Of a stretch of 64,000 nucleotides of DNA, positions 19,167 to 35,555 are shown one piece after another (within the stretch, counting starts at the first letter, position 1; each line of letters opens with the position of its first letter). The position numbers and the translations under genes are program-made. Below the pieces are notes generated by a model. The model saw only the letters and a list, made by a program, of their open reading frames with translations, had not been told where the DNA came from and did not search any database. Source of the DNA: Candidatus Omnitrophota bacterium (GTDB lineage Bacteria; Omnitrophota; Gorgyraeia; JABMRN01; RBG-13-46-9); NCBI GenBank assembly GCA_013203315.1, contig JABMQJ010000029.1, positions 635 through 64,634 of the forward strand, given 5' to 3'.

Positions 19167-19197
19167 ATTTATAACAAATCTTAAAGCGGAGATAAAA

Positions 19198-20895: not shown

Positions 20896-20910
20896 TTTAA
20901 ATTTCACATC

Positions 20911-20985
20911 ATCCAAAAAGCCCTGCCCAAGCTCCTGTATGTATTGCCTCTGAGATATGCCCTGCTTCGACGGTTTCTTTTAAAA
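20911..20985. repeat. Degraded copy of the last ~75 nt of yifB/comM; direct repeat of 32194..32268
   Basis: About 88% identity with one 1-nt indel. Reverse-complement translation gives KETVEAGHISEAI... versus the authentic KETIEAGHISEAISYRSLDRDFWIG*. It sits in a 350-nt intergenic gap. Confidence 0.7.
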
Positions 20986-21244
20986 TCCGGAAGCTCGTCT
21001 AAAAATAGCACCCCGTTATTCTAGATAGTAAATATTCATAACGGTATATAAACAAATAAGTTGTAACAGAAAATGGATAAGAGATAAGAACTAGCTTTTA
21101 TCATTATTGCCTTGCCGATATATCTTAGTACTTCTCAAGTTGTTTATTTCCCAAGGAAATGATATACTTACCACATTAGACATAATAAAGGCATATCGGT
21201 ATGGGTTTTGCTTGAAATTTACTCGATCACAAGGACAATAAGTC

Positions 21245-22456
21245 ATGAATATTAAATTAATGCGAAATCTGGATGAACTTCTAGGTCCGTCAATCTGTTT
21301 TATATTTCACATTTATAATTGCGTAAGGAAACTATTTATTAAACCGAAGTTATTGCCGGTCAATAAAATACTTTTACTCAAGTTTTTTGGAATGGGAAGT
21401 ATTGTATTAACAGGACCGATGGTAAGAGCCCTAAGAAGCAAATTTACCGATGCTAAAATTACAATATTTACTTTTTCTGCTAATAAAGAAATATGCGAAC
21501 TTACACAACTATTTGATGAAGTGGTGCTCATAAATACTAATTCTTTTGCAGCTCTATTATCTAGCGTTTTGAATGGCATGTTATATTTAAGAAAACAAAG
21601 ATTTGATATATGTATTGATTTAGAATTCTTTACAAAATTTTCTACAATTCTTTGTTATCTGTCAGGAAGCCGGATACGAGTCGGTTATTTCTTGATACAA
21701 ATTGGCATTCTTCTCAAAATGATGTGGCGTGGCAATCTGCTTACGCATCAGGTTTATTTTAATCAACACAAACACGCAACTGAAGTGTTTGTGGCTCTCG
21801 CAAATTCCATAGGTGCTGATACAAAAGATTATAGTTATGCGCAATTACACCTACCCTTAGCCGCCTCCAATTCGATCAACCAGATTTTAAGTCCTTATTT
21901 AAAACAGAAAGAAAAATTAATCGCTGTAAATGTAAACGCAAGCCCTTTATGCTTAGAAAGAAGATGGCCGAAAGAAAATTTTGCACAAATAATAATCAAA
22001 CTTCTTTCAGATGCGAAAGAAGTCAAGGTCGCTTTAGTTGGCGGGAAAGATGATGTGCCATATGTAAATTCGTTTCTTGATATTTTGCAAAAGGAGATAA
22101 ATAAAGATAGAATAATAAATTTAACTGGAAGGCTGTCAATAGCGGAACTGACAGCCCTGTTGATGAAAGCACAATTGTTTATAACAAATGATAGCGGCCC
22201 ACTTCACATCGCCGTGTCATTAGGAAAGCCGACCGTTTCATTTTTTGGTCCGGAAAGCCCCAGACGCTTTGGTCCCAAAGATGATATGCACTTAGTATTG
22301 TATTGTGAGAAAGTATATTGTACCCCTTGCCTTAATGTTTACAGTCAGAAAATCTCCTTTTGCAACGGCAATAATATTTGCCTTAAGTCAATACAGCCAG
22401 ACGATGCTTATAGATTGTTAAGACAGAAGTATAAATTTTTGTTTCAAAATGAATAA
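21245..22456 (+). CDS. Glycosyltransferase family 9 (LPS heptosyltransferase-like)
   Basis: GMGSIVLTGPMVRAL near the N-terminus; C-terminal ITNDSGPLHIAVSLGKPTVSFFGP, typical of RfaC/RfaF/RfaQ-type GT9 enzymes. Confidence 0.8.
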   Translation: MNIKLMRNLDELLGPSICFIFHIYNCVRKLFIKPKLLPVNKILLLKFFGMGSIVLTGPMVRALRSKFTDAKITIFTFSANKEICELTQLFDEVVLINTNSFAALLSSVLNGMLYLRKQRFDICIDLEFFTKFSTILCYLSGSRIRVGYFLIQIGILLKMMWRGNLLTHQVYFNQHKHATEVFVALANSIGADTKDYSYAQLHLPLAASNSINQILSPYLKQKEKLIAVNVNASPLCLERRWPKENFAQIIIKLLSDAKEVKVALVGGKDDVPYVNSFLDILQKEINKDRIINLTGRLSIAELTALLMKAQLFITNDSGPLHIAVSLGKPTVSFFGPESPRRFGPKDDMHLVLYCEKVYCTPCLNVYSQKISFCNGNNICLKSIQPDDAYRLLRQKYKFLFQNE

Positions 22457-23342
22457 AAATTTTACAGAAACCCCGATTACATGTGATATTTGTAAGAACA
22501 AAAACTTTTCCATTCGTTATAAGAATGTGATAGCTGATAAGTCAATATTAAAGTGCAAAAATTGCGGTACATGGGTTCTTTATCCCTTTCCATCCGAAAA
22601 GAGTCAAGAGAAAATCTATCAAAACGGTTACTATACTCGATGGGGATACGGCCAGGATAATCAAGAGACAATTAAACTTATAAAGAAACGCCTATATCTA
22701 AACGTTTTAAAAAAAATTGAATTGTACACCAAGCCAACTAAAATCCTCGACATCGGATGCGCAATGGGATTCTCTTTAGAGGTTGCCAAGGAGAGGGGGT
22801 TGCAACCTTACGGGGTTGAGGTTTCCGTGTTTGCCGGAAAGATAGCAAGGAAAAAATTCAGAGATAATGTCAAAATAGGCGATATAAAAGATGTGGATTT
22901 CAAAAACGATTATTTTGATGCGATAACCATGGTCGACCTTCTTGAACATCTTATGCATCCCCTGACAATTTTAAGAAAGGCCAGATCGATTCTTAAAGAA
23001 AAAGGAATACTGGCAATAGTCATACCAAATACACTAAGTTTCTCTTCAAAAGTTATGAAACACAAATGGCCCCACATAAACGAAGAACACCTCTATTACT
23101 ATTCCCCATATTCAATTATGTCCGTACTATCCAGAATAGGGTTTAAAATCGAAAGCGTTAAAGCCTTTCCAAAGCCGATCACACTTTCATATGCTAAAAG
23201 CGTATTGAAATACGGCAGACACAGAGCCATGTATTATCTTTTGAATTTTATTTGCAAAATAGGTCCCACCAAATTGACAACAATTGATTTTCAGCTACCC
23301 ACGGGAGAAATGCTTATTATGGCAAGAAAATTACATGATTAA
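22449..23342 (+). CDS. Zn-ribbon + class I SAM-dependent methyltransferase
   Basis: CDICKNK...CKNCGT, then ILDIGCAMGF...VEVS...MVDLLEHL. Paralogous to the N-terminal half of the 19198..20895 protein. Confidence 0.75.
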   Translation: MNKNFTETPITCDICKNKNFSIRYKNVIADKSILKCKNCGTWVLYPFPSEKSQEKIYQNGYYTRWGYGQDNQETIKLIKKRLYLNVLKKIELYTKPTKILDIGCAMGFSLEVAKERGLQPYGVEVSVFAGKIARKKFRDNVKIGDIKDVDFKNDYFDAITMVDLLEHLMHPLTILRKARSILKEKGILAIVIPNTLSFSSKVMKHKWPHINEEHLYYYSPYSIMSVLSRIGFKIESVKAFPKPITLSYAKSVLKYGRHRAMYYLLNFICKIGPTKLTTIDFQLPTGEMLIMARKLHD

Positions 23343-25176
23343 AAAAATATCTAGAAATACTTCTTGTCCTTGCGGGAGTGGCAAAAAGTATAAAAATTGC
23401 TGCAGGGGCAAGTCTACAATTTTTAACACAGCCAAAAACCTCGGCAGTCGTACCGCGACCCCTGCATGGATTAGCCCTTTAGTGTCGACGGTTTTTAAGA
23501 TTTTCGGCTATGTAATAATACCTCTTTTAATAATCATGTTGCTAAGGGAGCCGAATTTTCTAAATGGATTTATAGATCATCTTGAGATGGGACAGTATCT
23601 TTCGTCGGTAAATGGTATTTTTGAGGGTAAGACACCGTATAAAGATTTTTTTACTCTTTTTGGTGCATTCCAACTTTATGCTATTACGTTTTTCATGTTT
23701 TTGTTCGGAAAGACAATAGCTGTTCTGAAAACATTTTTTTACATTGGTTACATTTTAAGCTTTCTGGCTATTTATATTTTGGCAAGAAATGTATACAAAA
23801 ATAGATTTTTTATGTATTTTATACCACTTATATGTTTGGTGGAAGTAAGCCATCCATTCTGGGCAACCTCTTGGGATTATGGAAGGATGGGGCTGGGGCT
23901 TTTAATAATAACATTTTTAATTAAGTTTTTAGCAAAAGAAAATGTGAAATTCCTGTTAATTGCAGGAACCGTTTCTTGCTTTGCCCTGTTTTACAGTATT
24001 GATGTAGGCGCTTTTTCAATGATTTCAGCCACTTTTTTTATTTTGATTTGGTCCATAAGTCAAAAGATAAAAAATCCCATAGCTTTCATTAAACATCTCT
24101 TCCGAAATATTACTTACTATGGTCTAGGGGTGTTATTGATAATGCTTCCCTTTTTTGCATTTTTGTACTACAGAGGCGCCCTAAGTCCTTATTTGAAAAC
24201 AACCTTCTATATAATACCCAAATACCACATGGAGGTATGGGGGCAATCAATAGTGCAATTCCCATGGGAATCTATTAATAGTTTACCTCAGTTCTTTTTG
24301 TTGGCAAAATCAATGATTTTTAAGATGTATCTCCCTGTACTTTTATACACACTTATTTTTATTTATTTAATCTTGTCTTTCTTTATGAAGAAATGGGGCA
24401 AGGATAAGATGGTTATGTTGATCCTGCTTGTCTATGGAGTGCTTGTATACAAGGCATCTTTTCGCGCAATATCAGGGCCACAGTTTCAAGTGGCATTGCC
24501 GCCTTTAATTATTTTGATTGGTCTATTTTTAGAAAGGATGGCCAACTCTCTCGCTGCAATTTATAAACAGAAAGAAATAACTTGGACTCTAAGCAAAGGA
24601 ATCCCATTAAAGGCTATTTCTTCCGTTTTGCTTATTTTATTATGTTTTTTCTACTTTCTAGTTTCAGAAAAAAGATATTATGGCACGCTTCACGGCTGGA
24701 TACAGCATCAGACTTTGAAAAAATATATTTCATCGGGCTATACGAAACCTTTACTGATTAGCAGTCTGAATCTTGTAAGACCACGTATTGAGAGATCGGG
24801 GAATATCATGATTCTTCCACAGCAGGCAGGCAAAATGGAAAAGGTAGTAAGCTATTTAGAAGAAAATACAGAAGAGAATGAAGAAGTATTTACCTTTCCG
24901 GAACATGGTTTGTATAATTTTTTAGCGGACAGACCGGCATTCAGCAGGTTTTACATTGCGGGTTTTGCGTGGACTACTCCAGAATGGAGGTCAGAACTTT
25001 TAAATGAGTTGGCTAGAAAAAAACCAAAAGTCGTAGTGTATTGTACTAGACTTTCTAACATGGCAAAAAGTATTAATAGGTCAAAAGAACTTCTGCCTGA
25101 AGTAAGCGAATTTATTGTCAATAATTATCATGTGTCCAGGAAATTCTACGATATTATTATCTATGAAAGAAATTAA
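23335..25176 (+). CDS. Polytopic membrane protein with an N-terminal SEC-C zinc-binding motif and a C-terminal soluble domain (GT-C-like architecture, family unassigned)
   Basis: ORF track 23284..25176. ATG 23335 gives MIKKISRNTSCPCGSGKKYKNCC, a SEC-C motif like the SecA C-terminus. About 12 TM segments follow, then a ~170-aa hydrophilic C-terminal domain. Confidence 0.6.
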   Translation: MIKKISRNTSCPCGSGKKYKNCCRGKSTIFNTAKNLGSRTATPAWISPLVSTVFKIFGYVIIPLLIIMLLREPNFLNGFIDHLEMGQYLSSVNGIFEGKTPYKDFFTLFGAFQLYAITFFMFLFGKTIAVLKTFFYIGYILSFLAIYILARNVYKNRFFMYFIPLICLVEVSHPFWATSWDYGRMGLGLLIITFLIKFLAKENVKFLLIAGTVSCFALFYSIDVGAFSMISATFFILIWSISQKIKNPIAFIKHLFRNITYYGLGVLLIMLPFFAFLYYRGALSPYLKTTFYIIPKYHMEVWGQSIVQFPWESINSLPQFFLLAKSMIFKMYLPVLLYTLIFIYLILSFFMKKWGKDKMVMLILLVYGVLVYKASFRAISGPQFQVALPPLIILIGLFLERMANSLAAIYKQKEITWTLSKGIPLKAISSVLLILLCFFYFLVSEKRYYGTLHGWIQHQTLKKYISSGYTKPLLISSLNLVRPRIERSGNIMILPQQAGKMEKVVSYLEENTEENEEVFTFPEHGLYNFLADRPAFSRFYIAGFAWTTPEWRSELLNELARKKPKVVVYCTRLSNMAKSINRSKELLPEVSEFIVNNYHVSRKFYDIIIYERN

Positions 25177-25224
25177 TGAATCTTTTTATTCCAACTTGTT
25201 CAAATTTGTAGCCTCATCAAGCTA

Positions 25225-25256
25225 ATAGTAGGGCACTCTTAAGAGTGCCCTACTAT
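25225..25256. repeat. Perfect 32-bp palindrome ATAGTAGGGCACTCTT|AAGAGTGCCCTACTAT
   Basis: 16-nt perfect inverted arms with no loop, about 50 nt after the stop of the 630-aa gene. Not followed by a T-run. Confidence 0.8.
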
Positions 25257-25363
25257 GTGGATAAGTATACTGCCGGGAAAGGCGAAATTGGCGCGAGTTT
25301 TTGAACGCGCTTAAAAAAGGGATCGGCGCAGTTTAAAGTTTATTAAAGAAGATCCTTAAAAAC

Positions 25364-26524
25364 ATGCATGATAAAAATTGCTTAAAATTAGCCGTTGTTA
25401 GCATCTTTGACACTAATAATGCGCAAGATTGGTCCGGCATTCCTTTTTATATGACGAAAGGTTTAAGGAAGTATTTTCCCGCTCTTGATACCGTAGGCCC
25501 TTTGCGCTATAAAGATTCATGGATCTTAAAGAAGAAAAATTTGATTTATCAGCGCTTCTTCCAAAGTAAGTTTTTCCCGCAATATGATATCTCCTCTTTA
25601 AAATATTTTTCCAAACAAGTATCTGAAAAAATTCAGGGAAAAAAAATAGATGTTATTTTTAGTATTCACCCGGATCCAATCGCGTTTTTTCAAACAGACA
25701 AGCCCGTAATTTTTACTAGTGATGCAACTTTTGCAAGCTTACTGAGGCTTTACCCTGCACTACGCAATTTAAGCCGTGAAAGCGTCAGAAACGGGCACCT
25801 TTTATTCCAACGAGCTATAGATAAATGCGCACTGGCGATTTTTCCTTCCGAGTGGGCAGCAGAAAGCGCCAGGCAGGATTATGGCACTGACCCCCGGAAG
25901 GTTCACGTGATTCCTTATGGAGCGAACATTGATAATGATCGGAACCGGGACGATATAATGAAACTTATAGAATCTCGCTCTAAAAATGTTTGTAAATTAC
26001 TTTTTATCGGCGTAGATTGGAAGCGCAAAAGAGGGGACGCAGCGGTAAGGATAGCCGTAGAGTTGAATCGACGGGGTTTAAAAACAGAGCTATATATTGT
26101 CGGATGCCATCCACCTTCCGGGGAGAAACTTCCCGATTTTGTGAAAAAGCTTGGGTATATTGACAAGAAATCCAAGGCCGGAGGAGAGCAGCTTCGCAAG
26201 CTTTTTGAGGAATCTCATTTTTTTGTTCTTCCATCTCAAGCCGAATGTTTCGGGATTGTTTTTTGTGAAGCCAATTCTTTCGGAATGCCGTGTATAGCAA
26301 CAAACATCGGAGGAATACCCACGATATTTAAGGATAACCTAAACGGCAAACTCTTTCCCGTTGAAAACATGGTAGAAGGGGCGACGCAGTACATTCTTCA
26401 AATATTTCCGCGATTCGATCATTATCAAGAGCTTTGTCTCTCTTCCTTCGAAGAGTATAAAAACCGTTTAAACTGGGATACTTTTTCTGAGAAGACCAGG
26501 GAACTTATTACAACAGTGCTTTAA
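25364..26524 (+). CDS. Glycosyltransferase family 4 (GT-B, RfaB/WcaL-like)
   Basis: C-terminal EsHFFVLPSQAECFGIVFCEANSFGMPCIATNIGGIP matches the GT4 EX7E region. Confidence 0.8.
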   Translation: MHDKNCLKLAVVSIFDTNNAQDWSGIPFYMTKGLRKYFPALDTVGPLRYKDSWILKKKNLIYQRFFQSKFFPQYDISSLKYFSKQVSEKIQGKKIDVIFSIHPDPIAFFQTDKPVIFTSDATFASLLRLYPALRNLSRESVRNGHLLFQRAIDKCALAIFPSEWAAESARQDYGTDPRKVHVIPYGANIDNDRNRDDIMKLIESRSKNVCKLLFIGVDWKRKRGDAAVRIAVELNRRGLKTELYIVGCHPPSGEKLPDFVKKLGYIDKKSKAGGEQLRKLFEESHFFVLPSQAECFGIVFCEANSFGMPCIATNIGGIPTIFKDNLNGKLFPVENMVEGATQYILQIFPRFDHYQELCLSSFEEYKNRLNWDTFSEKTRELITTVL

Positions 26525-26573
26525 AAGGTAAGGCATTAAAATGATATTATACTAAAAGGAGCTATCAGCAAAA

Positions 26574-28148
26574 ATGAAGCCGGAACAGAAAAAATATATC
26601 GCAGGATTCAATCAACGCAAAACCCACATCATTCTTGTTATATTATTGATTGGTGTGGTCGCTATTATATATGCGAATTCATTCGGAGGCCCATTTTTGT
26701 TCGACGACAATGCTTTAGTAAAAAACAATACTTTAATCAGGACTTTATCAAATATACCAAAATTTTTTAAAACAGATATTTGGGCATATAATGTCGATGC
26801 AAAACCCATCAGCAATTCATATAGACCTATACAAGTTGTTACATATGCCATTGATTTTTTCTTATATGGAAATGACCCTAAAGGATTCCATTTTACCAAT
26901 ATCTTGGTACATCTTTTTAATGTTCTATTAGTCTTTTTGCTCGTCAAAGAAATTTTTAATAATAGGTTCATGCCATTTTTTGTCTCTCTATTGTTTGGGA
27001 TACACCCTGCAAATACAGCATGCGTGTCTTATATTTCAGGTAGAGCAGATGTCTTAGTCACGGCATTTATGCTTTTGTCTATCATATCTTACATTAAGTA
27101 TGTCAAAAATGAGCGATTATATTTTTTACTATTTTCTGTTTTGTCATATTCATTTGCCGTATATTCCAAAGAATACGCGATATTGGTTGTGCCATGTATT
27201 TTATTTTTGTATAATATTATTTCCGATAGAAAAATTATTTTCAAGATTAAGCCTTATATTTTTTATATTTTACCACTGGCACTTTACTTACCAATGAGAA
27301 TGCATGCTTTAACAGGCTTAACTTCACGAACTTTGGAACTTTCAACAATAAACTTACTTCCCAGATTACTGACTTCTTTAAAAACATTATTCATTGATAT
27401 TAGAATACTGTTTTTACCTTACGACCTTCACTTCGGAAGAAGTACCAAGGTTGAATATTCAATTTTTGGTAGCCCCTATTCTATTCTTACTATTCTGGGA
27501 CTCGTGCTCGTTACATGCGCTTTAAGACGTATGTATAAAAAATGGAAAATAGAGAAAAATACGGAAAGCGGAATTATATTTTTCGGTATTTCATGGTTTT
27601 TTGCTTCCATGATACCACTGCTTAACGTCTTTCCCCTCCAGGTTTTTCATGCCGATAGCTGGCTCTATTTTTCGTCTATTGGGGTATACATAGCTTTTGC
27701 CGCAGCAATAAATTATATTTGGCAATTACTTAGCAAGAAAAGTGCATTATTTAGGAACGTTCTTTGTATATTAATTTGCTTTATGTTTTTATATTATGGA
27801 TATACTACGGTAAGGCGGAATGAAGACTACCAAAGTGAAATAAAATTTTATCTTTCTAGCGTAAAATGGAGACCAAGTGTGAAATTCTATAGAGTTATAG
27901 GAGGGTTGTATGGCAAAAAGGGGGACTATAATAACGCTGTGAAATATTTGCAGAAAGCAATTGAAGTTAACAAAACCTACCCTTCACCAGAAGTAACAGC
28001 CGCATACTATAATTTAGGAATTACGTATATGAGGTTATCCGAATATAAAAAAGCAGAAGAAACTTTTGAGAAAGTAATGATGTCAAACGATGAATCCCTA
28101 AAAAAAGAAACCGCAAAATACTTATTATATATTAAGCGGCATAGATAA
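26574..28148 (+). CDS. TMTC/PMT-like polytopic membrane protein with C-terminal TPR repeats (DUF1736-type putative protein O-glycosyltransferase)
   Basis: About 10 TM segments and a conserved YRPIQVVTYAIDFFLYG...FHFTNILVHLFNVLLVF block. C-terminal TPRs (...YNLGITYMRLSEYKKAEETFEKV...). Confidence 0.6.
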   Translation: MKPEQKKYIAGFNQRKTHIILVILLIGVVAIIYANSFGGPFLFDDNALVKNNTLIRTLSNIPKFFKTDIWAYNVDAKPISNSYRPIQVVTYAIDFFLYGNDPKGFHFTNILVHLFNVLLVFLLVKEIFNNRFMPFFVSLLFGIHPANTACVSYISGRADVLVTAFMLLSIISYIKYVKNERLYFLLFSVLSYSFAVYSKEYAILVVPCILFLYNIISDRKIIFKIKPYIFYILPLALYLPMRMHALTGLTSRTLELSTINLLPRLLTSLKTLFIDIRILFLPYDLHFGRSTKVEYSIFGSPYSILTILGLVLVTCALRRMYKKWKIEKNTESGIIFFGISWFFASMIPLLNVFPLQVFHADSWLYFSSIGVYIAFAAAINYIWQLLSKKSALFRNVLCILICFMFLYYGYTTVRRNEDYQSEIKFYLSSVKWRPSVKFYRVIGGLYGKKGDYNNAVKYLQKAIEVNKTYPSPEVTAAYYNLGITYMRLSEYKKAEETFEKVMMSNDESLKKETAKYLLYIKRHR

Positions 28149-28321
28149 ACGCATGTTGCGCATAAATTTTATTAATCCCAACACAGCCAAAAAACCCTAT
28201 CCAAGCCCATTATATATTTATTTATAATTCGATTTCCCCGCCGCTACAACTTTTTAGAAAGTCATGTCCTTGCAAAGATTAATAGATAATGGTATATTTG
28301 AAGTAAAATAAGGAGGTTTTT

Positions 28322-28624
28322 ATGAATAAGGCATTGTTAGTGGCCGCACTTTTCATCTGTATACCTGTTGTGCTCGTTTGTGAAATGGCGGAAAGCCAAC
28401 AAGAGCAAGTTAAGCCCAAAAAAGTGGAAGTGGATTCCAATTATGATGGCGTGGTTGACCGTATCGAATTTTATGATAATAACGGACAAATAGTAAAAAT
28501 AGAATTTGATAGGACAGGCGATGGTAAAATAGACGAGTGGGTAACCTACAAAAACGGACAACCGTCTGATGTTGAAAGAGATACGAACGCAGACGGTAAG
28601 CCGGATGTCTGGATGGAATATTAG
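28322..28624 (+). CDS. Small secreted protein with three DxDxDG calcium-binding-like loops
   Basis: Signal peptide MNKALLVAALFICIPVVLVC. Loops DSNYDGVVDRIEF, DRTGDGKIDEWV and DTNADGKPDVWMEY. Good AAGGAGG SD. Confidence 0.6.
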   Translation: MNKALLVAALFICIPVVLVCEMAESQQEQVKPKKVEVDSNYDGVVDRIEFYDNNGQIVKIEFDRTGDGKIDEWVTYKNGQPSDVERDTNADGKPDVWMEY

Positions 28625-28740
28625 AATCTAAACTATATATTGTGGAAGGGATCCTTATATCAGTCGTAGTGACCCGATTTGATAAAAGTGGCAAGAAACT
28701 CCGGTATTAGACCGGGAATATTAACCACGGAGAGACCTTG

Positions 28741-28930
28741 AAAAAGCCCGATAAATACAATGCCCTTGCAGTAACCCTTTTAATTATACTGGCAATAGTT
28801 TCGCACCTGCCGAGCTTCAGCTTATATAATGTTGGGCGATAAAGAGAATGCGCTTAAATACTGGAAAAAGTCTTTGGCAATCAATCCAAATCAGCCGGAT
28901 TTGAAAAAATATATTTTACGTAATAAATAA
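28741..28930 (+). pseudogene. Frameshifted remnant of the C-terminal TM/TPR end of a TMTC-like protein
   Basis: Frame a reads ...NALAVTLLIILAIVSHLPSFSLYNVGR*. One nucleotide out of frame it continues AYIMLGDKENALKYWKKSLAINPNQPDLKKYILRNK*, a TPR consensus. No start codon and no SD. Confidence 0.45.
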
Positions 28931-29026
28931 TTTTCCAGTCAATCAAAACAAAAAGATAGATAATATAGTAATATACGCAAAGCAAACAAGTAAAAGAAAT
29001 TGCTATAACAACAGTTAAGGAAAATT

Positions 29027-30262
29027 TTGTCAAAAAAGGAAAATTTAACCAATTTTGCTAAGGCTGGGTACCAGAAACAGGGAACAAGGCAAACGGTAAA
29101 TAACTTTCTAGTCATTATAACCGTCGCATTTATTGTCCATATGATACCTGTTTTGCTAGGTGCCGATTCCGCGGATATTTTGCTTTATAAAATACAAGCC
29201 TATCCCATACTTAAAGGGCTAAATATATATAGCGTTACTCACAAAATATTTCCCTATTCGCCTGTATCAATGTTTATTCCGGCTTTATGTGCCAAGATAT
29301 CTTTCTGGCTAAATATCCCGTTTTACATAATTATGAAAATTCCTGCTGTGTTGGGAGATGTTTTCACAGCTGGAGCACTCTATTTGATATTCTCAAAGCT
29401 AGATCCAAAAAATAGCTATTTTTTGGGATTATTTTATGCTTTAAATCCGCTTTCTCTATTGATAGGTTCTTTTCATGGGAATATGATGTCAGTTCCTACG
29501 CTATTTATGTTCCTTTCTTATGTGGTTTTACTTTATGGCGTAGAGAGTAATTACAGATTGTCGGCCTTATTGCTGGGACTGGCGATCGGTTTTAGAGGAT
29601 TCCCTGTTCTACTATTGCCGCTATTTTTGATCAAGTTGCCATTACCCCTAAAAAAGCGGGTGGAGTATTTAATATATGCAACAATTCCCACCGCTTTATC
29701 TTTTGTGCCGTTTCTTTTATTAGATTATAGATCTGTTCTTAAAGAAGTCTTCGCTTACAGCGGTTGGGCAGATTATGGTTTTCTAGCTATATTAAGGGGG
29801 ATATTGTCTATTAAAGTAGGAATTTTGGCATATGGTTTGCCTGGCAACCTTCAGGTCATCCTTACAAGTATCACAAAAAAGTTTTTCTTTATAATGTACT
29901 TTATAATCATTTTAGGATTTAGAAAAAAGAGATTAATAGACTTAATTGTTGCTGTTTTTCTCATTTTTTATTTTATATATGCGAGTGTAGCTTCTCAATA
30001 TTTTCTCTGGATCTTGCCATTTATTTTCTTGACCAAGGATCGTTTACTTAAATTTTATCTGATTATATGTTCGCTGGCTCTTATAGGTTTTTATTATCTA
30101 TATCATCCACAGATACTTTTTGGTAGATTTGATGTTGTTAAACTGCCATTAAAAACTCTTCTCTTTAATGAAGTTGTGTGGATGACTGCCCTGTGGCTGT
30201 TATGTGGTTTTTGGATTTTATGTTTGATATTTAGAAAAAGGGAAAATGAAATCTTTATTTAA
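29027..30262 (+). CDS. Polytopic membrane protein, GT-C/DUF2029-like putative glycosyltransferase
   Basis: TTG start. Eleven or more TM segments with loop residues resembling PIG-M/GT87-type mannosyltransferases. Assignment is weak. Confidence 0.4.
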   Translation: MSKKENLTNFAKAGYQKQGTRQTVNNFLVIITVAFIVHMIPVLLGADSADILLYKIQAYPILKGLNIYSVTHKIFPYSPVSMFIPALCAKISFWLNIPFYIIMKIPAVLGDVFTAGALYLIFSKLDPKNSYFLGLFYALNPLSLLIGSFHGNMMSVPTLFMFLSYVVLLYGVESNYRLSALLLGLAIGFRGFPVLLLPLFLIKLPLPLKKRVEYLIYATIPTALSFVPFLLLDYRSVLKEVFAYSGWADYGFLAILRGILSIKVGILAYGLPGNLQVILTSITKKFFFIMYFIIILGFRKKRLIDLIVAVFLIFYFIYASVASQYFLWILPFIFLTKDRLLKFYLIICSLALIGFYYLYHPQILFGRFDVVKLPLKTLLFNEVVWMTALWLLCGFWILCLIFRKRENEIFI

Positions 30263-30389
30263 ACTAAGGCTATCAGAAAAGATTGTAATAGGCTATTTTA
30301 TCCTGTTATATATTTGGGAAATTATTTATATCTTGAATATGAAAAAGTAATAATGCTAAACTGCAAGTCATTAGAAAAAAGAGCTGAAG

Positions 30390-30491
30390 ATGGAATTGTT
30401 TACTGATTCCACTGTTTCCGAGAAGCGTGACATGTTCCACTTTGTTGTCTTTCCGTGCAACGCGGGCAGCTCTGCGGCACAGAATGACTAA
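30390..30491 (+). CDS. Hypothetical 33-aa peptide (MELFTDSTVSEKRDMFHFVVFPCNAGSSAAQND) upstream of the radical SAM gene
   Basis: Short ORF in a locally GC-richer patch, with a weak SD. Speculative. Confidence 0.2.
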   Translation: MELFTDSTVSEKRDMFHFVVFPCNAGSSAAQND

Positions 30492-30580
30492 TACCCACCA
30501 CTCTATTATTCCAAAACCATTTATGCTATACTATAAATAATATTATTATACAAATAGCTGTAAAAAGGCTAGGTGGAGCA

Positions 30581-31999
30581 ATGCGAATTGCATTCGTGCA
30601 GAACTTGGCAGTTGAATATATGGGGGTTATGTATCTTTCCGCGGCACTGAAAGAAAACTCCCACAAAACTGAAATATTTATAGACAACGGAAACAGAAAG
30701 ATGTTCCGTGAAATCAAAGATTACAACCCGCATTTAATTGCTTTTTCCTGCACAACGGGATTGCATGAGTGGTGTTTGAATGTGGCAAGAGAGCTAAAAA
30801 AAATAGTCCCGGCAAAGGTTATTCTCGGTGGTTCCCACCCGACTTTTTTTCCAGAAGTAATAGAATCAGAGTTTGTAGACATAATATGCAGGGGGGAAGG
30901 GGATGGCGCTATTTTAGATTTAGCCAACAAAATGGAGGGTAAGAGTGATTATACGAAAACGCCGAATCTCTGGGTTTCGGTATCCGGAAAGATTATAAAA
31001 AACGACGTTCGCCCGTTGATAAAGAATCTCGACCTGTTACCTTTTCCAGATAGACAACTATACGAAGGTAAGTATCCTTACCTGAAAACCAGTCAGAAAG
31101 GAATCTTTACGGGCAGGGGATGCCCATTTAGCTGCTCCTACTGCTTTAATGATACCCTGAGGAATATCTATCGAGGAAAGGGGCAATACGTTAGAAAAAG
31201 GAGCGTTGACAATGTTATCGAGGAAATAGAACTATTGAGAAAAGAAGGCAAGGTAGAAACGGTCTATTTCGAGGATGACGTTTTTTTGATTGGCAGGGAA
31301 TGGTTTGAAGAATTCGCGGTGAAATACAGGCATAAAGTTAATATTCCGTATATTTGCCTTTTGAGGGTAGAAAGCATCAACGAACAAATTGTAAAAATGC
31401 TGAAAGAATCAAATTGCAGAAACGTATTTTTTGGCGTAGAAACCGGGTCCGAAGAGATAAGATTTAGATTGCTCAAGAGACGTATGACCGACAGGCAGAT
31501 TGTGGCCGCCGCCGCCCTTCTTAAGAAATACAATATAGGTTTTCGCACATACAATATTTTGGGGTTGCCCGAAGAGACAATAGAGGACGCGTTCAAAACA
31601 GTCCATCTCAACACTAGTATAGGGACGGATTATCCCTGGTGTTCGCTGCTTTATCCGTACCCCGGAACGGAAATTAATACGTATGCCCTTAAGCGTAACC
31701 TTATTTCAGATAAGGCCGACGACAGGAGTCATATATCTTTCTTCAAAAGCAGCGTGATAAAATTGGATAATAAAAATGAATTGGAGAACCTACAGAAATT
31801 ATTTTTTTATGCCGTAAAATTTCCAAGACTCGAGGGCATAATAAGAAAGCTTATAAAGATAAAACCAAACTTTATATTTAGTATCCTGTTTCTGCTAAGT
31901 TACGGGTGGTGTTCCTGGAAGAGCGAAAACCATAAAATCTCCGAAATAATTGTTCGGGGAATTAAGAATATATTTAAGTTATATTTTAAATCTAGTTGA
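30581..31999 (+). CDS. B12-binding domain radical SAM protein
   Basis: N-terminal cobalamin-binding region (HLIAFSCTT...ILGGSHPTFFP) followed by a radical SAM CxxxCxxC motif (GRGCPFSCSYCFN). Confidence 0.8.
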   Translation: MRIAFVQNLAVEYMGVMYLSAALKENSHKTEIFIDNGNRKMFREIKDYNPHLIAFSCTTGLHEWCLNVARELKKIVPAKVILGGSHPTFFPEVIESEFVDIICRGEGDGAILDLANKMEGKSDYTKTPNLWVSVSGKIIKNDVRPLIKNLDLLPFPDRQLYEGKYPYLKTSQKGIFTGRGCPFSCSYCFNDTLRNIYRGKGQYVRKRSVDNVIEEIELLRKEGKVETVYFEDDVFLIGREWFEEFAVKYRHKVNIPYICLLRVESINEQIVKMLKESNCRNVFFGVETGSEEIRFRLLKRRMTDRQIVAAAALLKKYNIGFRTYNILGLPEETIEDAFKTVHLNTSIGTDYPWCSLLYPYPGTEINTYALKRNLISDKADDRSHISFFKSSVIKLDNKNELENLQKLFFYAVKFPRLEGIIRKLIKIKPNFIFSILFLLSYGWCSWKSENHKISEIIVRGIKNIFKLYFKSS

Positions 32000-32026
32000 T
32001 TACTGAGAAACGGTTATGAAGCTAAA

Positions 32027-32149
32027 ATGATGAGAAATATTTTTAGGTTTTTTGAACCATCGCTTTGTCCCGCTCTCTATATAGATGATAATATAGAAAA
32101 GAAGATGCTTATCAAGCCGAAGCTATTATCGGTCAACCGGAATTCATAA
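32027..32149 (+). pseudogene. Remnant of the 5' end of a GT9 heptosyltransferase gene
   Basis: MMRNIFRFFEPSLCPALYIDDNIEKKMLIKPKLLSVNRNS* aligns with residues 6-45 of the intact GT9 (LMRNLDELLGPSICFIFHIYNCVRKLFIKPKLLPVNK). IKPKLLxVN is identical and the matching nucleotide stretch is ~80% identical. Confidence 0.5.
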
Positions 32150-32186
32150 TGTTATTCTAGTCTGGTTGGCTTTGTCAGGTTACAAG

Positions 32187-33722
32187 TTACCCAATCCAAA
32201 AATCCCTGTCCAAACTCCTGTATGATATTGCCTCCGAGATATGGCCTGCCTCGATGGTTTCTTTTTCATCGAGATCCGCGATGGTTCGGGCTACTTTCAG
32301 TATCTTATCGTATGCCCTCGCTGATATGCCGAGTTCCAGGATCGCCATCTTAAGCAGTTCTTCGCCTTCTTTATCGAGTACGCAGTATTTCTCAAGGTGC
32401 CTTGACTCGAGGTGCGCGTTAAAAAGGACCGAATTGGCCCTGTAGCGCTTCATCTGAATTTTTCGCGTTTTATTGACGCGCTTGCGTATTGCTTCGGATG
32501 TGTCGCCTTTTCTTCTCTGCGAGAGTTCTTCATAGTTTAGCCGGGGAACATTAAGATGTATATCAATTCTGTCGAGCAACGGCCCGGAAATTTTACCTAA
32601 ATAACGCTGTATCTGATACGGTGTGCAGTGACACTCCCGCTTTGGGTCGGTAAAGTTCCCACACGGGCAGGGATTCATGGCTGCTACGAGCATGAAGCGT
32701 GAGGGGTATTCACTATTTCCCTGGATTCTTGAGATCCGTATCGTGCCGTTTTCGATTGGCTGGCGGAGGAGTTCGAGGACGTTTCGTTTGAATTCCGGTA
32801 ACTCGTCAAGGAAAAGGACCCCGTTGTGTGCGAGGCTTATCTCGCCTGGCACAGGGGTTGTGCCGCCTCCTACCAGCGCTGCGTCGGAAATTGAATGATG
32901 GGGGTCCCTGAAGGGCCTGTGCAAGATAAGGCCTTTGTGCGGTGAAAGAAATCCTGCTACACTGTGGATTTTTGATGTTTCAAGGATTTCGTCGATAGAC
33001 ATTTCGGAAAGTATAGTAGGAACTCTTTTGGCTAACATGCTTTTACCGGAACCCGGAGGGCCTATAAGCAGTATGTTGTGCCCGCCTGACGAGGCGACTT
33101 CCAAACCTCTTTTTACATGCTCTTGGCCTTTGACATCGGTGAAGTCTCTTTTATGTTTATGCTTAAATCCCACTCTTAAAATGGGATGTCCATTTTGAGG
33201 ATCCATTTCCAGCTTGCCGTTTAAGAAATTTACGACGTCATTAAGAATTCCGAAGGTATAGATCTCCATGGTGTTCACGTTTTGCACTTCTAGTAAATTC
33301 TTTTTTGGTAGAATAAGTTTTTTAATACCTTCTTTCTTTAGCCCGAGAGATATCGGCAAAGCCCCTCTTATCTCCTTAAGATAGCCTTCCAATGACAATT
33401 CCCCGCAAAATGCAAATTCCAGAAGCCTCTCCTGATCTATAATTCCAAGAGCACAAAGTATGGCAAGGGCTATGGGCAAATCGAAGGCCGATCCTGTTTT
33501 TTTAATGTTAGCAGGAGCAAGATTTACGGTTATCTTTCCTTTGGGGAAGAGATGCCCCGAATTTTTTATGGCAAACTTTATCCGATCCCTGGACTCTCTT
33601 ATCGCGGTATCCGGTAGCCCTATTATGTTGAATACACGTAGCCCATCAGCTATGTCAGCTTCTACCTCAACCTTGTAAGCATCTAATCCTATTATTGTGC
33701 ATGATATACATTTCCCGATCAT
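32187..33722 (-). CDS. comM: Mg-chelatase-like AAA+ ATPase YifB/ComM
   Basis: N-terminal Lon-like domain (GLPDTAIRESRDRIKFAI), Walker A LLIGPPGSGKSMLA, C-terminal Mg-chelatase-type domain. Confidence 0.85.
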   Translation of the reverse strand: MIGKCISCTIIGLDAYKVEVEADIADGLRVFNIIGLPDTAIRESRDRIKFAIKNSGHLFPKGKITVNLAPANIKKTGSAFDLPIALAILCALGIIDQERLLEFAFCGELSLEGYLKEIRGALPISLGLKKEGIKKLILPKKNLLEVQNVNTMEIYTFGILNDVVNFLNGKLEMDPQNGHPILRVGFKHKHKRDFTDVKGQEHVKRGLEVASSGGHNILLIGPPGSGKSMLAKRVPTILSEMSIDEILETSKIHSVAGFLSPHKGLILHRPFRDPHHSISDAALVGGGTTPVPGEISLAHNGVLFLDELPEFKRNVLELLRQPIENGTIRISRIQGNSEYPSRFMLVAAMNPCPCGNFTDPKRECHCTPYQIQRYLGKISGPLLDRIDIHLNVPRLNYEELSQRRKGDTSEAIRKRVNKTRKIQMKRYRANSVLFNAHLESRHLEKYCVLDKEGEELLKMAILELGISARAYDKILKVARTIADLDEKETIEAGHISEAISYRSLDRDFWIG

Positions 33723-33725
33723 TTT

Positions 33726-34112
33726 TCACCTCTGGTATTCTTCAATTGCATCTTCAAAATGCTCTATTCTCACTTTTTTGATGAACCAAAAGATGCGTTT
33801 CATCTCTATCGAAACAACATCAATCTGCCATTTGACGCTTGAAATATTTTTCATTTTTAAATAACACGAAGCACATTGTATAAGTTTTCTTTTCTTTTTC
33901 TCCGTTATGGATTGATGCGGCGGCCCAAATGAAGAAGAGCGTCTTGTTTTCACTTCTACAAAAATAAAAGAACCATCTTTTTTTGCTATAAGGTCAAGTT
34001 CTCCAACAAACGTTTTGATGTTTTTACCTATTATCTTATATCCTTTACGGGAGAGAAACCGCGCCGCGATATCTTCGCCTACTTTACCTAAAGCACGGTT
34101 TCTCATACCCAT
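33726..34112 (-). CDS. YraN family (UPF0102) endonuclease
   Basis: GEDIAARFLSRKGYKII...GELDLIAKKDGSFIFVEVKTR is a PD-(D/E)xK-like motif typical of the YraN family. Confidence 0.75.
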   Translation of the reverse strand: MGMRNRALGKVGEDIAARFLSRKGYKIIGKNIKTFVGELDLIAKKDGSFIFVEVKTRRSSSFGPPHQSITEKKKRKLIQCASCYLKMKNISSVKWQIDVVSIEMKRIFWFIKKVRIEHFEDAIEEYQR

Positions 34113-34124
34113 TTTTTACACCGC

Positions 34125-34412
34125 CTACTCGCTTTCCCCCCGGGCCTCGTAAGCCTGGAGCACGGTTTCAGATATGTATTCCTTGATTTCGTTTGTCGCA
34201 GGCAGGAACACATTAAACCACTTACCTTGTTTGCTTTGCTGCTGCGGCATGCCGACAAACATGCCCTTCTCGCCTTCAACGATCCTGAATCCTTTAACCA
34301 GAAAAAGATCCCCGAAAGCGAGGTCACAGAAAGCCTTTAACTTGCTTTCACCTTCGAGCTTGGTCATTCGGTCAACTTTCAAATTTAGAACTTCGCTAAC
34401 CATTTTTTTCAC
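34125..34412 (-). CDS. spoVG: SpoVG family protein
   Basis: Conserved ...FGDLFLVKGFRIVEGEKGMFVGMPQQQSKQGKWFNVFLPATNEIKEYISETVLQAY. The true start is probably the ATG 9 nt downstream of the GTG (MVSEVLN...), given the adjacent GGAGG. Confidence 0.8.
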   Translation of the reverse strand: MKKMVSEVLNLKVDRMTKLEGESKLKAFCDLAFGDLFLVKGFRIVEGEKGMFVGMPQQQSKQGKWFNVFLPATNEIKEYISETVLQAYEARGESE

Positions 34413-34419
34413 CTCCCTT

Positions 34420-34458
34420 CATATATATAGACAATCGAAAGACGGATTTTACTGCATG
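34420..34458 (-). promoter_or_regulatory. Conserved upstream motif, copy A, directly 5' of the spoVG SD (minus-strand reading ATGCAGTAAAATCCGTCTTTCGATTGTCTATATATATGA)
   Basis: Shares ATGCAGnAAAATC-N11-TTGTCTATATATATG-AGGG with copy B at 35556-35594. Confidence 0.45.
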
Positions 34459-35544: not shown

Positions 35545-35555
35545 GTTAGGCCCCT

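Follow-up and report, generated by a model that had tools for sequence, protein, structure and literature searches.

Decayed comM 3′ ends in a glycan-modification gene cluster of an Omnitrophota bacterium suggest growth by insertions at the comM tail

Introduction

Growth of genomic islands by insertion into the tail of a conserved gene is already known. The elements e14 and phage 21 in icd and SGI1 at the 3′ end of trmE integrate inside the gene and supply an alternative 3′ end. The gene trmE is mentioned in PMC8409611. The tandem islands of Dehalococcoides are stacked downstream of ssrA and bounded by direct repeats of its 3′ end with a uniform 20-bp core; most retain a serine-recombinase integration module, 15 are without one, and fixation has been proposed for some arrays (PMC3146451). 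CIMEs are decayed elements in which att sites persist and which grow through accretion; examples lie next to streptococcal ICEs/IMEs, as at the 3′ end of fda (PMC7563491 and reference 17 therein). The gene comM is itself a known target: for the AbaR/Tn6022 Tn7-like transposons of Acinetobacter it is a dedicated attachment site at which cargo islands form (PMC11014353), and sr1WO of phage WO integrates into the Mg-chelatase gene of Wolbachia (PMC9203015).

Here we describe a locus in a 64,000-nt stretch of DNA from a Candidatus Omnitrophota bacterium (the window; contig JABMQJ010000029.1), in which two decayed copies of the comM (yifB) 3′ end, R2 and R3, lie among glycan-modification genes beside an intact comM. 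It would represent such island growth without a remaining integration enzyme. As at ssrA, segments are stacked downstream of one conserved gene, with either that gene or a direct repeat of its 3′ end at the border of each; the low-GC, strain-variable setting and the presumed fixation of some arrays are further likenesses. In contrast to ssrA, the target is protein-coding, the relics (37 nt and, originally, probably at least 640 nt) are 11–35% diverged, and a recombinase is absent from the whole locus. With CIMEs the locus shares flanking repeats of att type that derive from the 3′ end of a housekeeping gene, the absence of recombination and transfer genes and, apparently, a tandem arrangement by accretion, but CIMEs are defined by a cognate ICE/IME integrase that recognizes att, whereas the att sites here are putative and have no known partner of this kind. 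As with e14, phage 21 and SGI1, a replacement 3′ end would keep the gene functional and leave the displaced original end at the far side, although those elements keep a tyrosine integrase beside the att site and duplicate a stretch far shorter than the at least 640 nt estimated for R2. Insertion of Tn6022, which encodes TnsABC/TniQ/TnsF, duplicates 5 bp of target and abolishes comM function (PMC11014353); none of these features is seen here. The comM prophages share the target gene (PMC9203015 and IMG/VR loci, below), but they halve comM and carry phage genes and a recombinase, whereas here comM is intact, the cargo concerns glycosylation and the relic is a partial duplicate of comM and not one of its two halves.

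Results

A variable block at an insertion hotspot

In five relatives with 77–80% identical ComM, lnt and the SNase-domain gene adjoin comM with 0.06–7.7 kb of unrelated cargo between them. The flanks are those of the window, where secA, prfB, uvrC and murJ lie upstream of lnt/SNase: murJ-uvrC-prfB-secA-lnt-SNase on one side, an order that also adjoins comM in relatives L084–L092, and comM-yraN-spoVG on the other, syntenic in all relatives compared. One relative (L087) has no cargo, with comM followed by SNase/lnt-secA after 64 nt. Elsewhere the site holds a gene for a Y1 transposase (L091), an ORF6N protein (L090) or a 413-aa protein (L089), or other cargo over 3.1 kb (L085) and 7.7 kb (L084). 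Both an empty site and alternative cargo (0.6–7.7 kb), which the initial annotation had suggested looking for, therefore exist, and the comM-lnt/SNase site is a real insertion hotspot.

Because lnt/SNase stands beside comM with unrelated cargo in the relatives, the variable low-GC block of the window is 17668–32186, or 14.5 kb (Table 1). Its left edge lies upstream of R2, 3.2 kb beyond the 21–32 kb to which the GC-poor, variable stretch had been confined. Island genes have a mean GC of 0.37 (range 0.32–0.41) and GC3 of 0.367, against 0.423 and 0.449 for the other 46 ORFs of the window (Mann-Whitney p = 4e-5); the low-GC zone begins at ~19 kb, left of the R2 repeat. The island is thus AT-rich as proposed, but by a smaller gap than had been estimated. 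Since the same gene block is also low-GC in a related contig (L094), amid different neighbours, low GC may simply characterise these membrane-protein genes and need not be a sign of recent import. Identity across the cluster is 99.99–100% among contigs of several samples, and the cluster is now fixed in its population; this bears out an old, fixed island, while the strain variability also suggested is absent within this population.

Table 1 Features of the window around comM.
Feature	Position	Strand	Description and evidence
Left conserved flank	15468–17667	+	lnt 15468–17006, SNase-domain gene 16969–17667; Pfam
Segment A gene 1	17817–19166	+	449-aa PMT_2 (GT-C type) membrane glycosyltransferase; Pfam PF13231 E 2e-7
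Segment A gene 2 (MT-GT2)	19198–20895	+	zinc ribbon + SAM methyltransferase + GT2 fusion; Pfam, NCBIfam
R2 C-terminal piece	20904–20981	−	comM codons 487–511 + TGA stop, 1-nt deletion; KETVEAGHISEAI / TYRSLGRAFWMM and stop
R2 Walker-B piece	20973–21020	−	comM codons 299/300–314; tblastn, nhmmer
Segment B1	21245–26524	+	four genes; Pfam, NCBIfam
GT9	21245–22456	+	segment B1; Pfam/NCBIfam
Methyltransferase	22449–23342	+	segment B1; Pfam/NCBIfam
SEC-C-motif polytopic membrane protein	23284/23335–25176	+	segment B1; Pfam/NCBIfam
GT4	25364–26524	+	segment B1; Pfam/NCBIfam
PMT_2 + TPR (TMTC-like) glycosyltransferase	26574–28148	+	524 aa; Pfam
Relic R3	28172–28208	−	last ~10 codons + stop of comM, broken at J; possibly to 28218
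Segment B2	28209–32186	+	unit closest to comM, 4.0 kb
Secreted Asp-rich protein	28322–28624	+	segment B2; 100 aa
Truncated TPR gene relic	28738–28930	+	segment B2
Polytopic membrane protein	29027–30262	+	segment B2; 411 aa
B12-binding radical SAM enzyme (rSAM)	30581–31999	+	segment B2
comM/yifB, intact	32187–33722	−	511 aa; Pfam PF13541, PF01078, PF13335
Right-hand repeat (comM 3′ end)	32194–32265		inside comM
Right conserved flank	33726–34412	−	yraN-like UPF0102 33726–34112, spoVG 34125–34412; Pfam

Profile searches against Pfam and NCBIfam upheld the annotated GT9, methyltransferase, SEC-C membrane protein, GT4, PMT_2+TPR and B12-radical-SAM genes. The 411-aa protein, first read as GT-C-like, has no family match and no PDB sequence match, and the 100-aa 'Ca-repeat' protein has weak EF-hand/Lsa25.6 matches only. 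The 449-aa gene has a syntenic counterpart in L094 (88% aa identity). The GT2 domain of MT-GT2 is polyprenyl-phosphate sugar synthase-like, and homologues of the fusion number hundreds in Omnitrophota at 56–74% identity, with one (P0122) at 91%; the closest rSAM homologues are just 65% identical. None of the ORFs of 17.7–32.2 kb has a recombinase or transposase domain in these searches, in agreement with the stated loss of an integrase. No recombinase, transposase or relic of one was found in L094 either, and the window has no tRNA gene. We consider, with about even confidence, that 17668–32186, which occupies this insertion hotspot of one Omnitrophota clade, forms a composite cluster of glycan-modification genes.

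Two relics of the comM 3′ end

The live comM is intact, as first annotated, with all three Mg-chelatase/ComM domains. Its 3′ end recurs in R2, where 20911–20981 aligns with 32194–32265 in the same orientation (63/71 identical, ~89%, one 1-nt indel; blastn-short E 2e-14; local score 102, against 27–29 for the best elsewhere in the window). The longest perfectly identical run is only 10 nt. This C-terminal piece matches the comM nucleotide profile (nhmmer E 1.7e-13), tblastn reproduced the frameshifted reverse-complement reading, and the R2 stop is 8 nt from the MT-GT2 gene stop. The proposed ~75-nt repeat with one indel is thus genuine and above chance, as is the co-orientation of displaced copies with intact comM.

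This copy is longer than the 75 nt originally taken as the left footprint. The adjoining 21020..20973 encodes NNGVLFLDELPDFKRN, which matches comM residues 299–314 in the Walker B region (14/16 aa by tblastn, 36/48 nt identical; nhmmer E 1e-8). The two pieces are fused directly across a 9-nt microhomology, AAAAGAAAC, so ~172 codons between 300–314 and 487–511 appear deleted. The comM similarity ends at codon 300, and none was found in 21021–21244 to the right. Two separate significant pieces joined in this way are evidence of decay from a long fragment and not of a coincidental match; by this comparison R2 is most probably what is left of a comM stretch of at least 640 nt that began at codon 300 and reached the stop, an extent atypical for an integrase core site. 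L094 holds an orthologous ~36-nt relic of R2 at 11707–11741.

R3 is non-significant against the comM profile on its own (nhmmer E 25), but it shares the signature CCCTATCCAAGCCC with L094 13387–13528, which runs on into comM nt 1400–1529 (nhmmer E 4e-31 over 130 nt; tblastn to comM codons 467–509, 35/43 aa identical). Comparison with this contig shows that R3 is homologous to the comM 3′ end; no comM similarity is left to the right of R3 in the window. It is extremely improbable that the repeats are fortuitous similarity or a motif conserved for its function, for instance a terminator. The short third copy taken alone would allow this, but the R2 matches, with order, strand and frame all correct, and the L094 match to R3 effectively refute it. 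The live comM end has CCCTGTCCAAACTC in place of the substitutions common to both R3 copies, which would fit a present comM tail that arrived with an insert. The comparison of 5′ and 3′ comM identity and GC3, meant to reveal a chimeric comM, drew on six relatives, the nearest intact comM being only ~80% identical.

The right ends of R3 in the window and of R2 in L094 are two independent breakpoints that lie within ~5–10 nt of each other in comM coordinates (J), with no residual similarity beyond either; the last 31–36 nt of comM (32187–32222) are left of J. All copies are co-oriented in the order R2, R3, live end, as accretion predicts. No common att arms were found among the sequences adjoining the relics, and any identical core in the comM copies is limited to 10 nt. 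The 14.5-kb block seems to have been enlarged by at least two insertions into the comM tail, with a decayed tail copy after each.

The same relics could have formed with no site-specific system, as RecA-dependent by-products of uptake from related strains, either through homology-facilitated illegitimate recombination or through Campbell-type single crossovers of circularised fragments with comM as anchor, in what would be ordinary glycan-locus turnover between conserved flanks. A hotspot with unrelated cargo and, in most relatives, without mobility genes agrees with this, as do the missing core and arms. The R2 homology tract is more in keeping with homologous pairing than with an att core, and its internal deletion at microhomology indicates that illegitimate events do happen at this locus. 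Such by-products are nevertheless rare, since a comM duplicate occurs at none of the six relatives' loci and at 1 of 80 comM loci of other species, whereas this lineage has two or three. The agreement of two independent breakpoints at J also speaks against such an origin, which we therefore regard as unlikely.

Modular cargo in related contigs

Three related contigs (L094, L095 and L096) carry, in order, the 449-aa gene, MT-GT2, the first ~36 nt of R2, the 524-aa gene and 135 nt of comM 3′ end; the stretches shared with the window are 90.7%, 86.6% and 83.7% identical in nucleotides. All three are without window 20939–26537 and 28209–32186. In L094, window 20938 is joined to 26538, so that segment B1 and 20939–21244 are missing and the 524-aa gene directly follows MT-GT2 (L094 11746–13416 corresponds to window 26538–28208, 86.6% identity). 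The L094 block adjoins neither comM nor secA, and comM relics can move along with cargo genes. The layout common to the three contigs suggests that a close relative of the locus had the 524-aa gene abutting comM, which would correspond to a site that segment B2 had not yet entered or had left by excision. We infer insertion in the window rather than deletion in L094.

These findings bear on the initial view of 11.3 kb (21.0–32.2 kb) as one unit. In such a model a single circular element integrated once, by recombination between a comM-like sequence that it carried and chromosomal comM; the integrase was later lost, and R3 would be an older scar already on the element. R2 and the live comM end do bracket the segment in direct orientation. 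In addition, a distant locus (L100) has the best available homologues of the two terminal genes side by side, an rSAM gene (63% identical) followed 16 nt on by a co-oriented GT9 gene (54.5% identical), whereas the window genes sit at opposite ends of 21.2–32.0 kb; joining the segment ends recreates the L100 order, a circular-permutation signature more readily explained by one circular element than by two steps. However, this adjacency comes from one distant locus only. The internal relic R3 and the joined sides of 20939–26537 in L094 sit poorly with one unit, and because the L094 524-aa gene is contiguous with 135 nt of comM and without 28209–32186, the part nearest comM behaves as a separate unit. 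Moreover, the variable low-GC region goes on left of R2, and there is neither an integrase nor an identical core. A single integration is accordingly rather improbable.

Discussion

Our preferred reading, to which we give roughly even weight, is that at least two insertions at the comM 3′ region, with a replacement tail each time, built the cluster. Incoming DNA would each time have recombined within the comM coding sequence and brought its own comM 3′ end, so that comM stayed intact and the prior 3′ end was displaced outward and decayed. R2 would stem from an older event, joined at codon 300, and would subsequently have lost codons 315–486 through the microhomology deletion. R3 would mark either another event or a unit capable of excision, joined at J, ~31–36 nt before the stop; the unit with this junction would bound the 4.0-kb segment nearest comM. 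That comM is a recurrent recombinase target, with breaks in IMG/VR loci (below) close to the R2 end at codon 300, speaks for this reading. The insertions may have begun as circular intermediates on which a site-specific recombinase acted, one since lost or encoded elsewhere; if so, the units would be CIME-like, integrase-less and in tandem accretion. The mechanism could be such a recombinase, lost or acting in trans, or homology-driven recombination; with R2 originally of at least 640 nt and R3 of ~37 nt, the two events may have used different mechanisms. In the window, R2 (89% identical to live comM) has decayed less than R3, the presumed younger relic; this counts against the proposed order and would be expected if R3 were the older scar of a single element. 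The lack of a recombinase and of a shared core or common att arms likewise weighs against the preferred reading.

The R2 junction at codon 300 also raises the possibility that a large-serine-recombinase prophage or island split comM there, leaving R2 as an orphaned 3′ half, after which the element was mostly replaced and DNA of a relative restored intact comM and brought new downstream cargo. In IMG/VR, seven loci (L135, L144, L149, L156, L174, L175 and L178) have a comM piece that begins at codon 300/301; their large serine recombinases, which are homologous, lie 0.8–4.5 kb away, and sr1WO offers a precedent for the target (PMC9203015). The R2 end lies at most 3 nt from the crossover point of these prophage loci, which also argues against purely RecA-dependent by-products. 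This split is nonetheless very unlikely. R2 retains the AAC codon, which puts its end 3 nt away from the viral junctions. The junction-proximal motif (TTGAAC...CGT) common to the viral loci is missing from the R2 flank, and neither a recombinase nor a phage gene occurs in the window; two further rare events would be required, and R3 and J would be left unexplained. At least 14 further comM loci in IMG/VR break at codon ~350.

Conserved flanks and variable content next to comM

The ComM protein encoded in the window is identical to a protein of an NCBI metagenome-assembled genome named Candidatus Omnitrophota. Among GTDB representatives the best ComM match was 58% identical, too distant for synteny, and a protein search yielded relatives at 73–81% identity, the contigs of six of which were compared. 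The flanks of the window are kept in all six, with murJ-uvrC-prfB-secA-lnt-SNase on one side and comM-yraN-spoVG through deacetylase and aaRS genes on the other, and the identities of these flanking genes in the window are supported by Pfam. The initial annotation had proposed looking in related genomes for empty sites or alternative cargo, and both were found: only 64 nt separate comM from SNase/lnt in L087/L088, and the other relatives carry unrelated cargo (Table). None of this cargo, including the Y1 transposases and the 413-aa gene, has kin or remnants in the window. The 3′ flank of comM is an insertion hotspot. As each relative has something different between comM and SNase/lnt, the variable block is delimited as 17668–32186 (14.5 kb), with the left comM relic, R2, inside it; the single ~11-kb island at 20911–32275 that had been drawn between ~75-nt direct repeats of the yifB/comM 3′ end is therefore too small, and its repeats are not its bounds. 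No second comM fragment was found in the relatives' loci L084–L091, and an extra comM-like fragment occurs in just one of 80 comM loci of other species. This sole case (L021, 13488–13607) comprises residues 383–422 and lies 2 kb 3′ of comM.

Y1 (PF01797, IS200/RAYT-like) transposase genes adjoin comM in three relatives (L084, 11648–12100; L085, 11666–12142; L091, 11644–12225), which suggests that the comM 3′ flank also draws HUH-type elements. The three genes are mutually dissimilar and lie directly 3′ of comM in the same orientation. On the other side of comM, the spoVG-proximal intergenic zone varies among relatives, with a nitroreductase gene in L087. An 88-aa small membrane protein gene (34560–34826, plus strand) lies on the spoVG side of comM in the window, and its homolog, 77% identical, lies on the lnt side in L085.

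Coordinates of the comM locus, of the segments shared with L094 (a related glycan-gene contig) and of the gaps next to comM in relatives. Families of island genes were assigned with Pfam and NCBIfam; positions are those of the window unless a contig is named.
Feature	Coordinates	Strand	Description
449-aa gene	17817–19166		PMT_2 GT-C glycosyltransferase
MT-GT2	19198–20895		methyltransferase-GT2 fusion, polyprenyl-phosphate sugar synthase-like
R2	20904–21020		left relic of comM 3′ end
Unit B1	21245–26524		GT9 to GT4
GT9	21245–22456		GT9
Methyltransferase	22449–23342		methyltransferase
SEC-C	23284–25176		SEC-C-motif polytopic membrane protein
GT4	25364–26524		GT4
524-aa gene	26574–28148		PMT_2+TPR protein
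R3	28172–28208		second relic, just 3′ of 524-aa gene
Unit B2	28209–32186		unit closest to comM
100-aa gene	28322–28624		Asp-rich protein
411-aa gene	29027–30262		membrane protein, family-less
rSAM	30581–31999		B12-binding radical SAM enzyme
comM/yifB	32187–33722	minus	511 aa, intact; ChlI, Mg_chelatase, Mg_chelatase_C domains
L094 segment 1	L094 8561–11741 = window 17760–20938		90.7% nt (blastn); 449-aa gene, MT-GT2, first ~36 nt of R2
L094 segment 2	L094 11746–13416 = window 26538–28208		86.6% nt (blastn); 524-aa PMT_2-TPR gene and 3′ sequence
L094 segment 3	L094 13394–13516 = window 32195–32317		83.7% nt (blastn); comM 3′ coding sequence
comM to SNase/lnt gap, L087/L088			64 nt
comM to SNase/lnt gap, L091/L092			Y1 transposase gene
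comM to SNase/lnt gap, L090			ORF6N gene
comM to SNase/lnt gap, L089			413-aa gene
comM to SNase/lnt gap, L085/L086			3.1 kb; Y1 transposase, methyltransferase, YdjC, two small genes
comM to SNase/lnt gap, L084			7.7 kb

Two relics of comM inside the variable block

The previously noted repeat of the comM 3′ end is real. Positions 20911–20981 and 32194–32265 run the same way and align at 63 of 71 identical positions, with a single 1-nt indel (blastn-short E 2e-14; nhmmer E 1.7e-13 with a profile of the window comM and its six relatives), and the local alignment score of 102 compares with 27–29 for the runner-up anywhere in the window. The 75-nt footprint holds as a copy of the comM 3′ end, but R2 is longer and also contains Walker-B codons ~300–314: NNGVLFLDELPDFKRN, encoded by 21020..20973, corresponds to ComM residues 299–314 around Walker B (tblastn; nhmmer E 1e-8). 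This piece (36/48 nt and 14/16 aa identical to live comM) is joined straight to codons 487–511 (66/77 nt identical) across the common string AAAAGAAAC, a fusion that removed ~172 codons and shifted the frame. Upstream (5′) of codon 300, no comM similarity was detectable at R2. R2 is therefore what is left of a comM fragment, ~640 nt or longer, that began at codon 300 or before it and ended with the stop.

The second relic was recognised through L094. A homolog of MT-GT2 that is 91% identical (P0122) is encoded on L094 and independently on L095 and L096, where its neighbours are giant-protein and TPR genes, not secA or comM. L094 aligns with the window in three segments (Table) and carries a comM fragment at 13387–13528, placed on comM nt 1400–1529 (nhmmer E 4e-31), with codons 467–509 aligned and one in-frame stop (tblastn). 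R3 is the ortholog of this fragment: both have the variant CCCTATCCAAGCCC where live comM reads CCCTGTCCAAACTC. By itself R3 shows 65% identity over 31 nt (nhmmer E 25), and its interpretation as a chance match was dropped once the orthologous L094 site proved to run on into 130 nt of comM.

Two stretches of the window are missing from L094, namely 20939–26537 (the remainder of R2 with the genes for GT9, the methyltransferase, the SEC-C protein and GT4) and 28209–32186 (the 100-aa gene, a TPR relic, the 411-aa gene and the rSAM gene). The 449-aa gene, MT-GT2 and the 524-aa gene follow one another without a break in L094, whereas in the window the set is interrupted. In L094 the 524-aa gene abuts the comM piece with no B2 between them, and therefore a close relative of this locus once had this gene against comM; this arrangement is the empty or excised state of the 4.0-kb unit B2. 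The module order in the window is R2, B1 with the 524-aa gene, R3, B2 and the comM end, with no mobility genes, and R2 and R3 are co-oriented with the complete comM, giving direct repeats from the 3′ end of an intact target.

The L094 block is flanked by giant-protein genes (L094 1–8203 and 17454–21698), one encoding >3000 aa with a scaffold gap and the other EF-hand-like repeats over >1795 aa, and is likewise low in GC. Two short overlapping ORFs at 28738–28930 in the window encode a transmembrane stub and the C-terminal end of a TPR protein, and resemble the remains of a gene that was truncated or frameshifted. The TPR fragment at 28835–28921 was considered as an ortholog of the L094 protein TPR494 and rejected, since the two share only 48% aa identity over 29 C-terminal residues with no nucleotide signal, a family-level relation.

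Breakpoints near the comM stop codon

The comM-like sequence of R3 ends after ...CCAAGCCC, and that of the L094 copy of R2 ends after ...GGCTTCTGT(C). These two independent ends are ~5–10 nt apart in comM coordinates, both 31–36 nt before the end of the stop codon, and no residual comM similarity was found beyond the relic ends. The corresponding point, J, lies between CTCCTGT and ATGATATT; its recurrence, in two cases only, is suggestive of a preferred crossover. The repeat copies are 11% diverged and their longest identical run is 10 nt; the lack of a longer identical core could be due to age. Common att arms or inverted repeats among the island intergenic regions were not found at z > 3. 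Sliding identity and GC3 comparisons of comM with its six relatives gave no breakpoint indicative of a chimeric gene, but the nearest intact relatives, only ~80% identical, are too distant for such a comparison to be informative. An 8-mer ATGATATT at 26541–26548 was considered as an excision core at the right end of B1 and rejected, as it is not conserved in the joined site of L094.

comM as a recombinase target

A scan of IMG/VR with ComM returned 78 loci (L101–L178), many with only a partial gene; as its seeds were a few peptides, FLDELPEF among them, the search is biased toward that region of comM. The internal ends of the comM pieces cluster at codon ~350 (at least 14 loci), 298–301, 274–280 and 215–226. 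Seven loci (L135, L144, L149, L156, L174, L175 and L178) have pieces that start at codon 300/301, and in 7/7 a large serine recombinase is encoded 0.8–4.5 kb from the junction; these recombinases are homologous, with 49–62% mutual identity, and the junction-proximal sequence is common to the loci. On the basis of the recurrent fragment ends and the nearby large serine recombinases, comM appears to contain several distinct prophage attachment sites across phyla. The same gene is targeted by sr1WO of phage WO (PMC9203015) and by Tn6022/AbaR elements (PMC11014353). The upstream end of R2, at codon 300, lies ≤3 nt from the viral serine-recombinase junction; R2 keeps the AAC codon, and none of the viral junction-flank motif is present. 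This coincidence may be taken as a lead only.

Viral contigs carrying the comM C-terminus alone were also sought as candidate attP sites and rejected: the three matches are phage mini ComM-like proteins of ~212 aa (L179 7572–8210; L180; L181) with the Walker A region and residues ~313–509.

A composite island and its probable assembly

The locus is a composite genomic island with target-gene relics, in which no recombinase is left, and the initial interpretation is partly borne out. The most likely history is one of stepwise accretion with the 3′ part of comM as its anchor, which fits the relics with their order and orientation, the hotspot and the pattern of presence and absence taken together. 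Every insert would bring a replacement comM tail, so that the gene survives. The model of one element inserted once has some support of its own: R2 is better preserved than R3, and rSAM and GT9, at opposite ends of 21.2–32.0 kb and 8 kb apart, have their best homologs adjacent in L100, an arrangement that could reflect circular permutation or coincidence. In L100, a distant polysaccharide cluster, the orthologs of rSAM (63% identical) and GT9 (54.5%) occupy 10001–12619, in that order and 16 nt apart.

For stepwise accretion, a site-specific recombinase, lost or acting in trans, is favoured because breakpoints cluster at J, R2 ends close to the viral codon-300 junction and duplicates of comM are rare in other loci. 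A serious rival is homology-driven integration, either Campbell-type or by homology-facilitated illegitimate recombination, which suits especially the source fragment of R2 with its length of at least 640 nt. We regard as improbable two more specific proposals taken together. One is that the comM 3′ end is a reusable dock for integrase-less glycan-gene cassettes, which a recombinase encoded elsewhere would insert, excise and reshuffle at a defined crossover ~31–36 nt before the stop codon, each cassette carrying a spare gene tail, in an integron-like or CIME-like array anchored in a protein-coding gene. The other is that a cargo island derived from a comM-targeting serine-recombinase element has taken up the 3′ half of comM (codons 300–511) and would thereby integrate without inactivating its target.

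Integrase-type 3′-end islands share with the comM locus the gene-3′-end direct repeats (here R2 and R3), the intact target gene and the empty site in relatives (L087/L088; L094 without B2), but usually have an integrase beside one att site, and none is present at comM. Dehalococcoides tandem ssrA islands are bounded by gene 3′-end repeats, many without an integration module (PMC3146451), and streptococcal CIMEs are built by accretion (PMC7563491); these are the closest documented analogs. As in a CIME or accretion array, tandem units are parted by comM-end copies and recombination and transfer genes are absent; no cognate ICE, IME or integrase was found within the 64-kb window. An sr1WO-like prophage, in contrast, splits comM into non-overlapping halves on either side of the element, whereas here comM is intact (511 aa) and R2 is a partial duplicate. 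The junction of such a prophage would lie at codon 300/301 with a recombinase gene nearby; R2 ends at codon 300, 3 nt from the viral junctions, with neither a recombinase nor the common flank motif. Tn6022/AbaR (Tn7-like) elements have TnsA/B/C, TniQ, a 5-bp target duplication and an interrupted comM, whereas the comM locus has no such domains, repeats of at least 37 nt and an intact comM. The conserved flanks, unrelated cargo in relatives and absence of mobility genes resemble a glycan locus exchanged by homologous recombination in its flanks, but clean exchange leaves no duplicates, and the window has two comM relics inside where the six relatives have none.

To our knowledge, Omnitrophota is a metagenome-only phylum with essentially no described mobile-element biology, and the comM relics are a mechanism-bearing footprint of horizontal gene gain within it. 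Surface-glycan genes appear here to have been put together module by module at a single chromosomal hotspot, and comM, already a target of Tn7-like elements and serine-recombinase phages, is now also a site where cargo can collect without gene inactivation. If J is a true recombination site, it gives an uncultured lineage an att sequence open to testing; if it is not, the locus is an ordinary, old, fixed genomic island.

Gene content and composition

The island genes have a mean GC of 0.37, compared with 0.423 for the other 46 ORFs of the window, and a GC3 of 0.367 compared with 0.449 (Mann-Whitney p = 4e-5). The AT-richness estimated by hand is thus real, but the contrast is about half that estimate and the low-GC stretch begins near 19 kb, left of R2. 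The initial gene list holds at the family level for GT9, the methyltransferase, SEC-C, GT4, PMT_2+TPR and rSAM, but the 411-aa protein matches no family; a PDB sequence search with the 411-aa and 449-aa proteins gave zero matches. As first proposed, no integrase is left: every ORF of 17.7–32.2 kb is free of recombinase and transposase domains (Pfam/NCBIfam), and tblastn detected no large serine recombinase remnants in the window or L094. There are no tRNA genes within the window.

The pairing of a GT2 polyprenyl-phosphate sugar synthase and PMT_2/GT-C transferases is standard in periplasmic glycosylation, whether of proteins or of envelope lipids; one such transferase of the island bears TPR repeats. 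From their families, GT9, GT4, the two methyltransferases and the rSAM enzyme, probably a methylase, would serve sugar addition and decoration. The closest relatives of the rSAM protein are at best 65% identical, and a metagenome scan with it gave one match only, at 27% identity. MT-GT2 has hundreds of Omnitrophota homologs at 56–74% identity besides the one at 91%, and is better seen as a core glycan module than as island cargo. These homologs sit in large polysaccharide clusters (for example, L097 and L099), usually 3′ of a 437–475-aa membrane protein gene and often of a B12-radical-SAM gene.

A 61-nt direct repeat, 75% identical with the core ATATATATAGACAAYSGAAA, occurs at 34415–34475, 5′ of spoVG, and at 35552–35612, upstream of a sigma/anti-sigma-like gene pair, with a 20-nt version at 30674–30693 within the 5′ end of the rSAM gene; its role may be that of a common promoter or operator.

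Population status

Over 9–21.5 kb, contigs of two JGI samples and two SRA runs match the window at 99.99–100% identity, and the arrangement is therefore fixed in this population; the five assemblies of this population are all collinear. The suggestion that the island is strain-variable finds no counterpart among these contigs, which show no variation. Two independent Logan assemblies (L002 and L003) both stop at exactly 25227 in the spacer between the SEC-C gene and GT4; the population may have a structural variant there, or a repeat that breaks assemblies.
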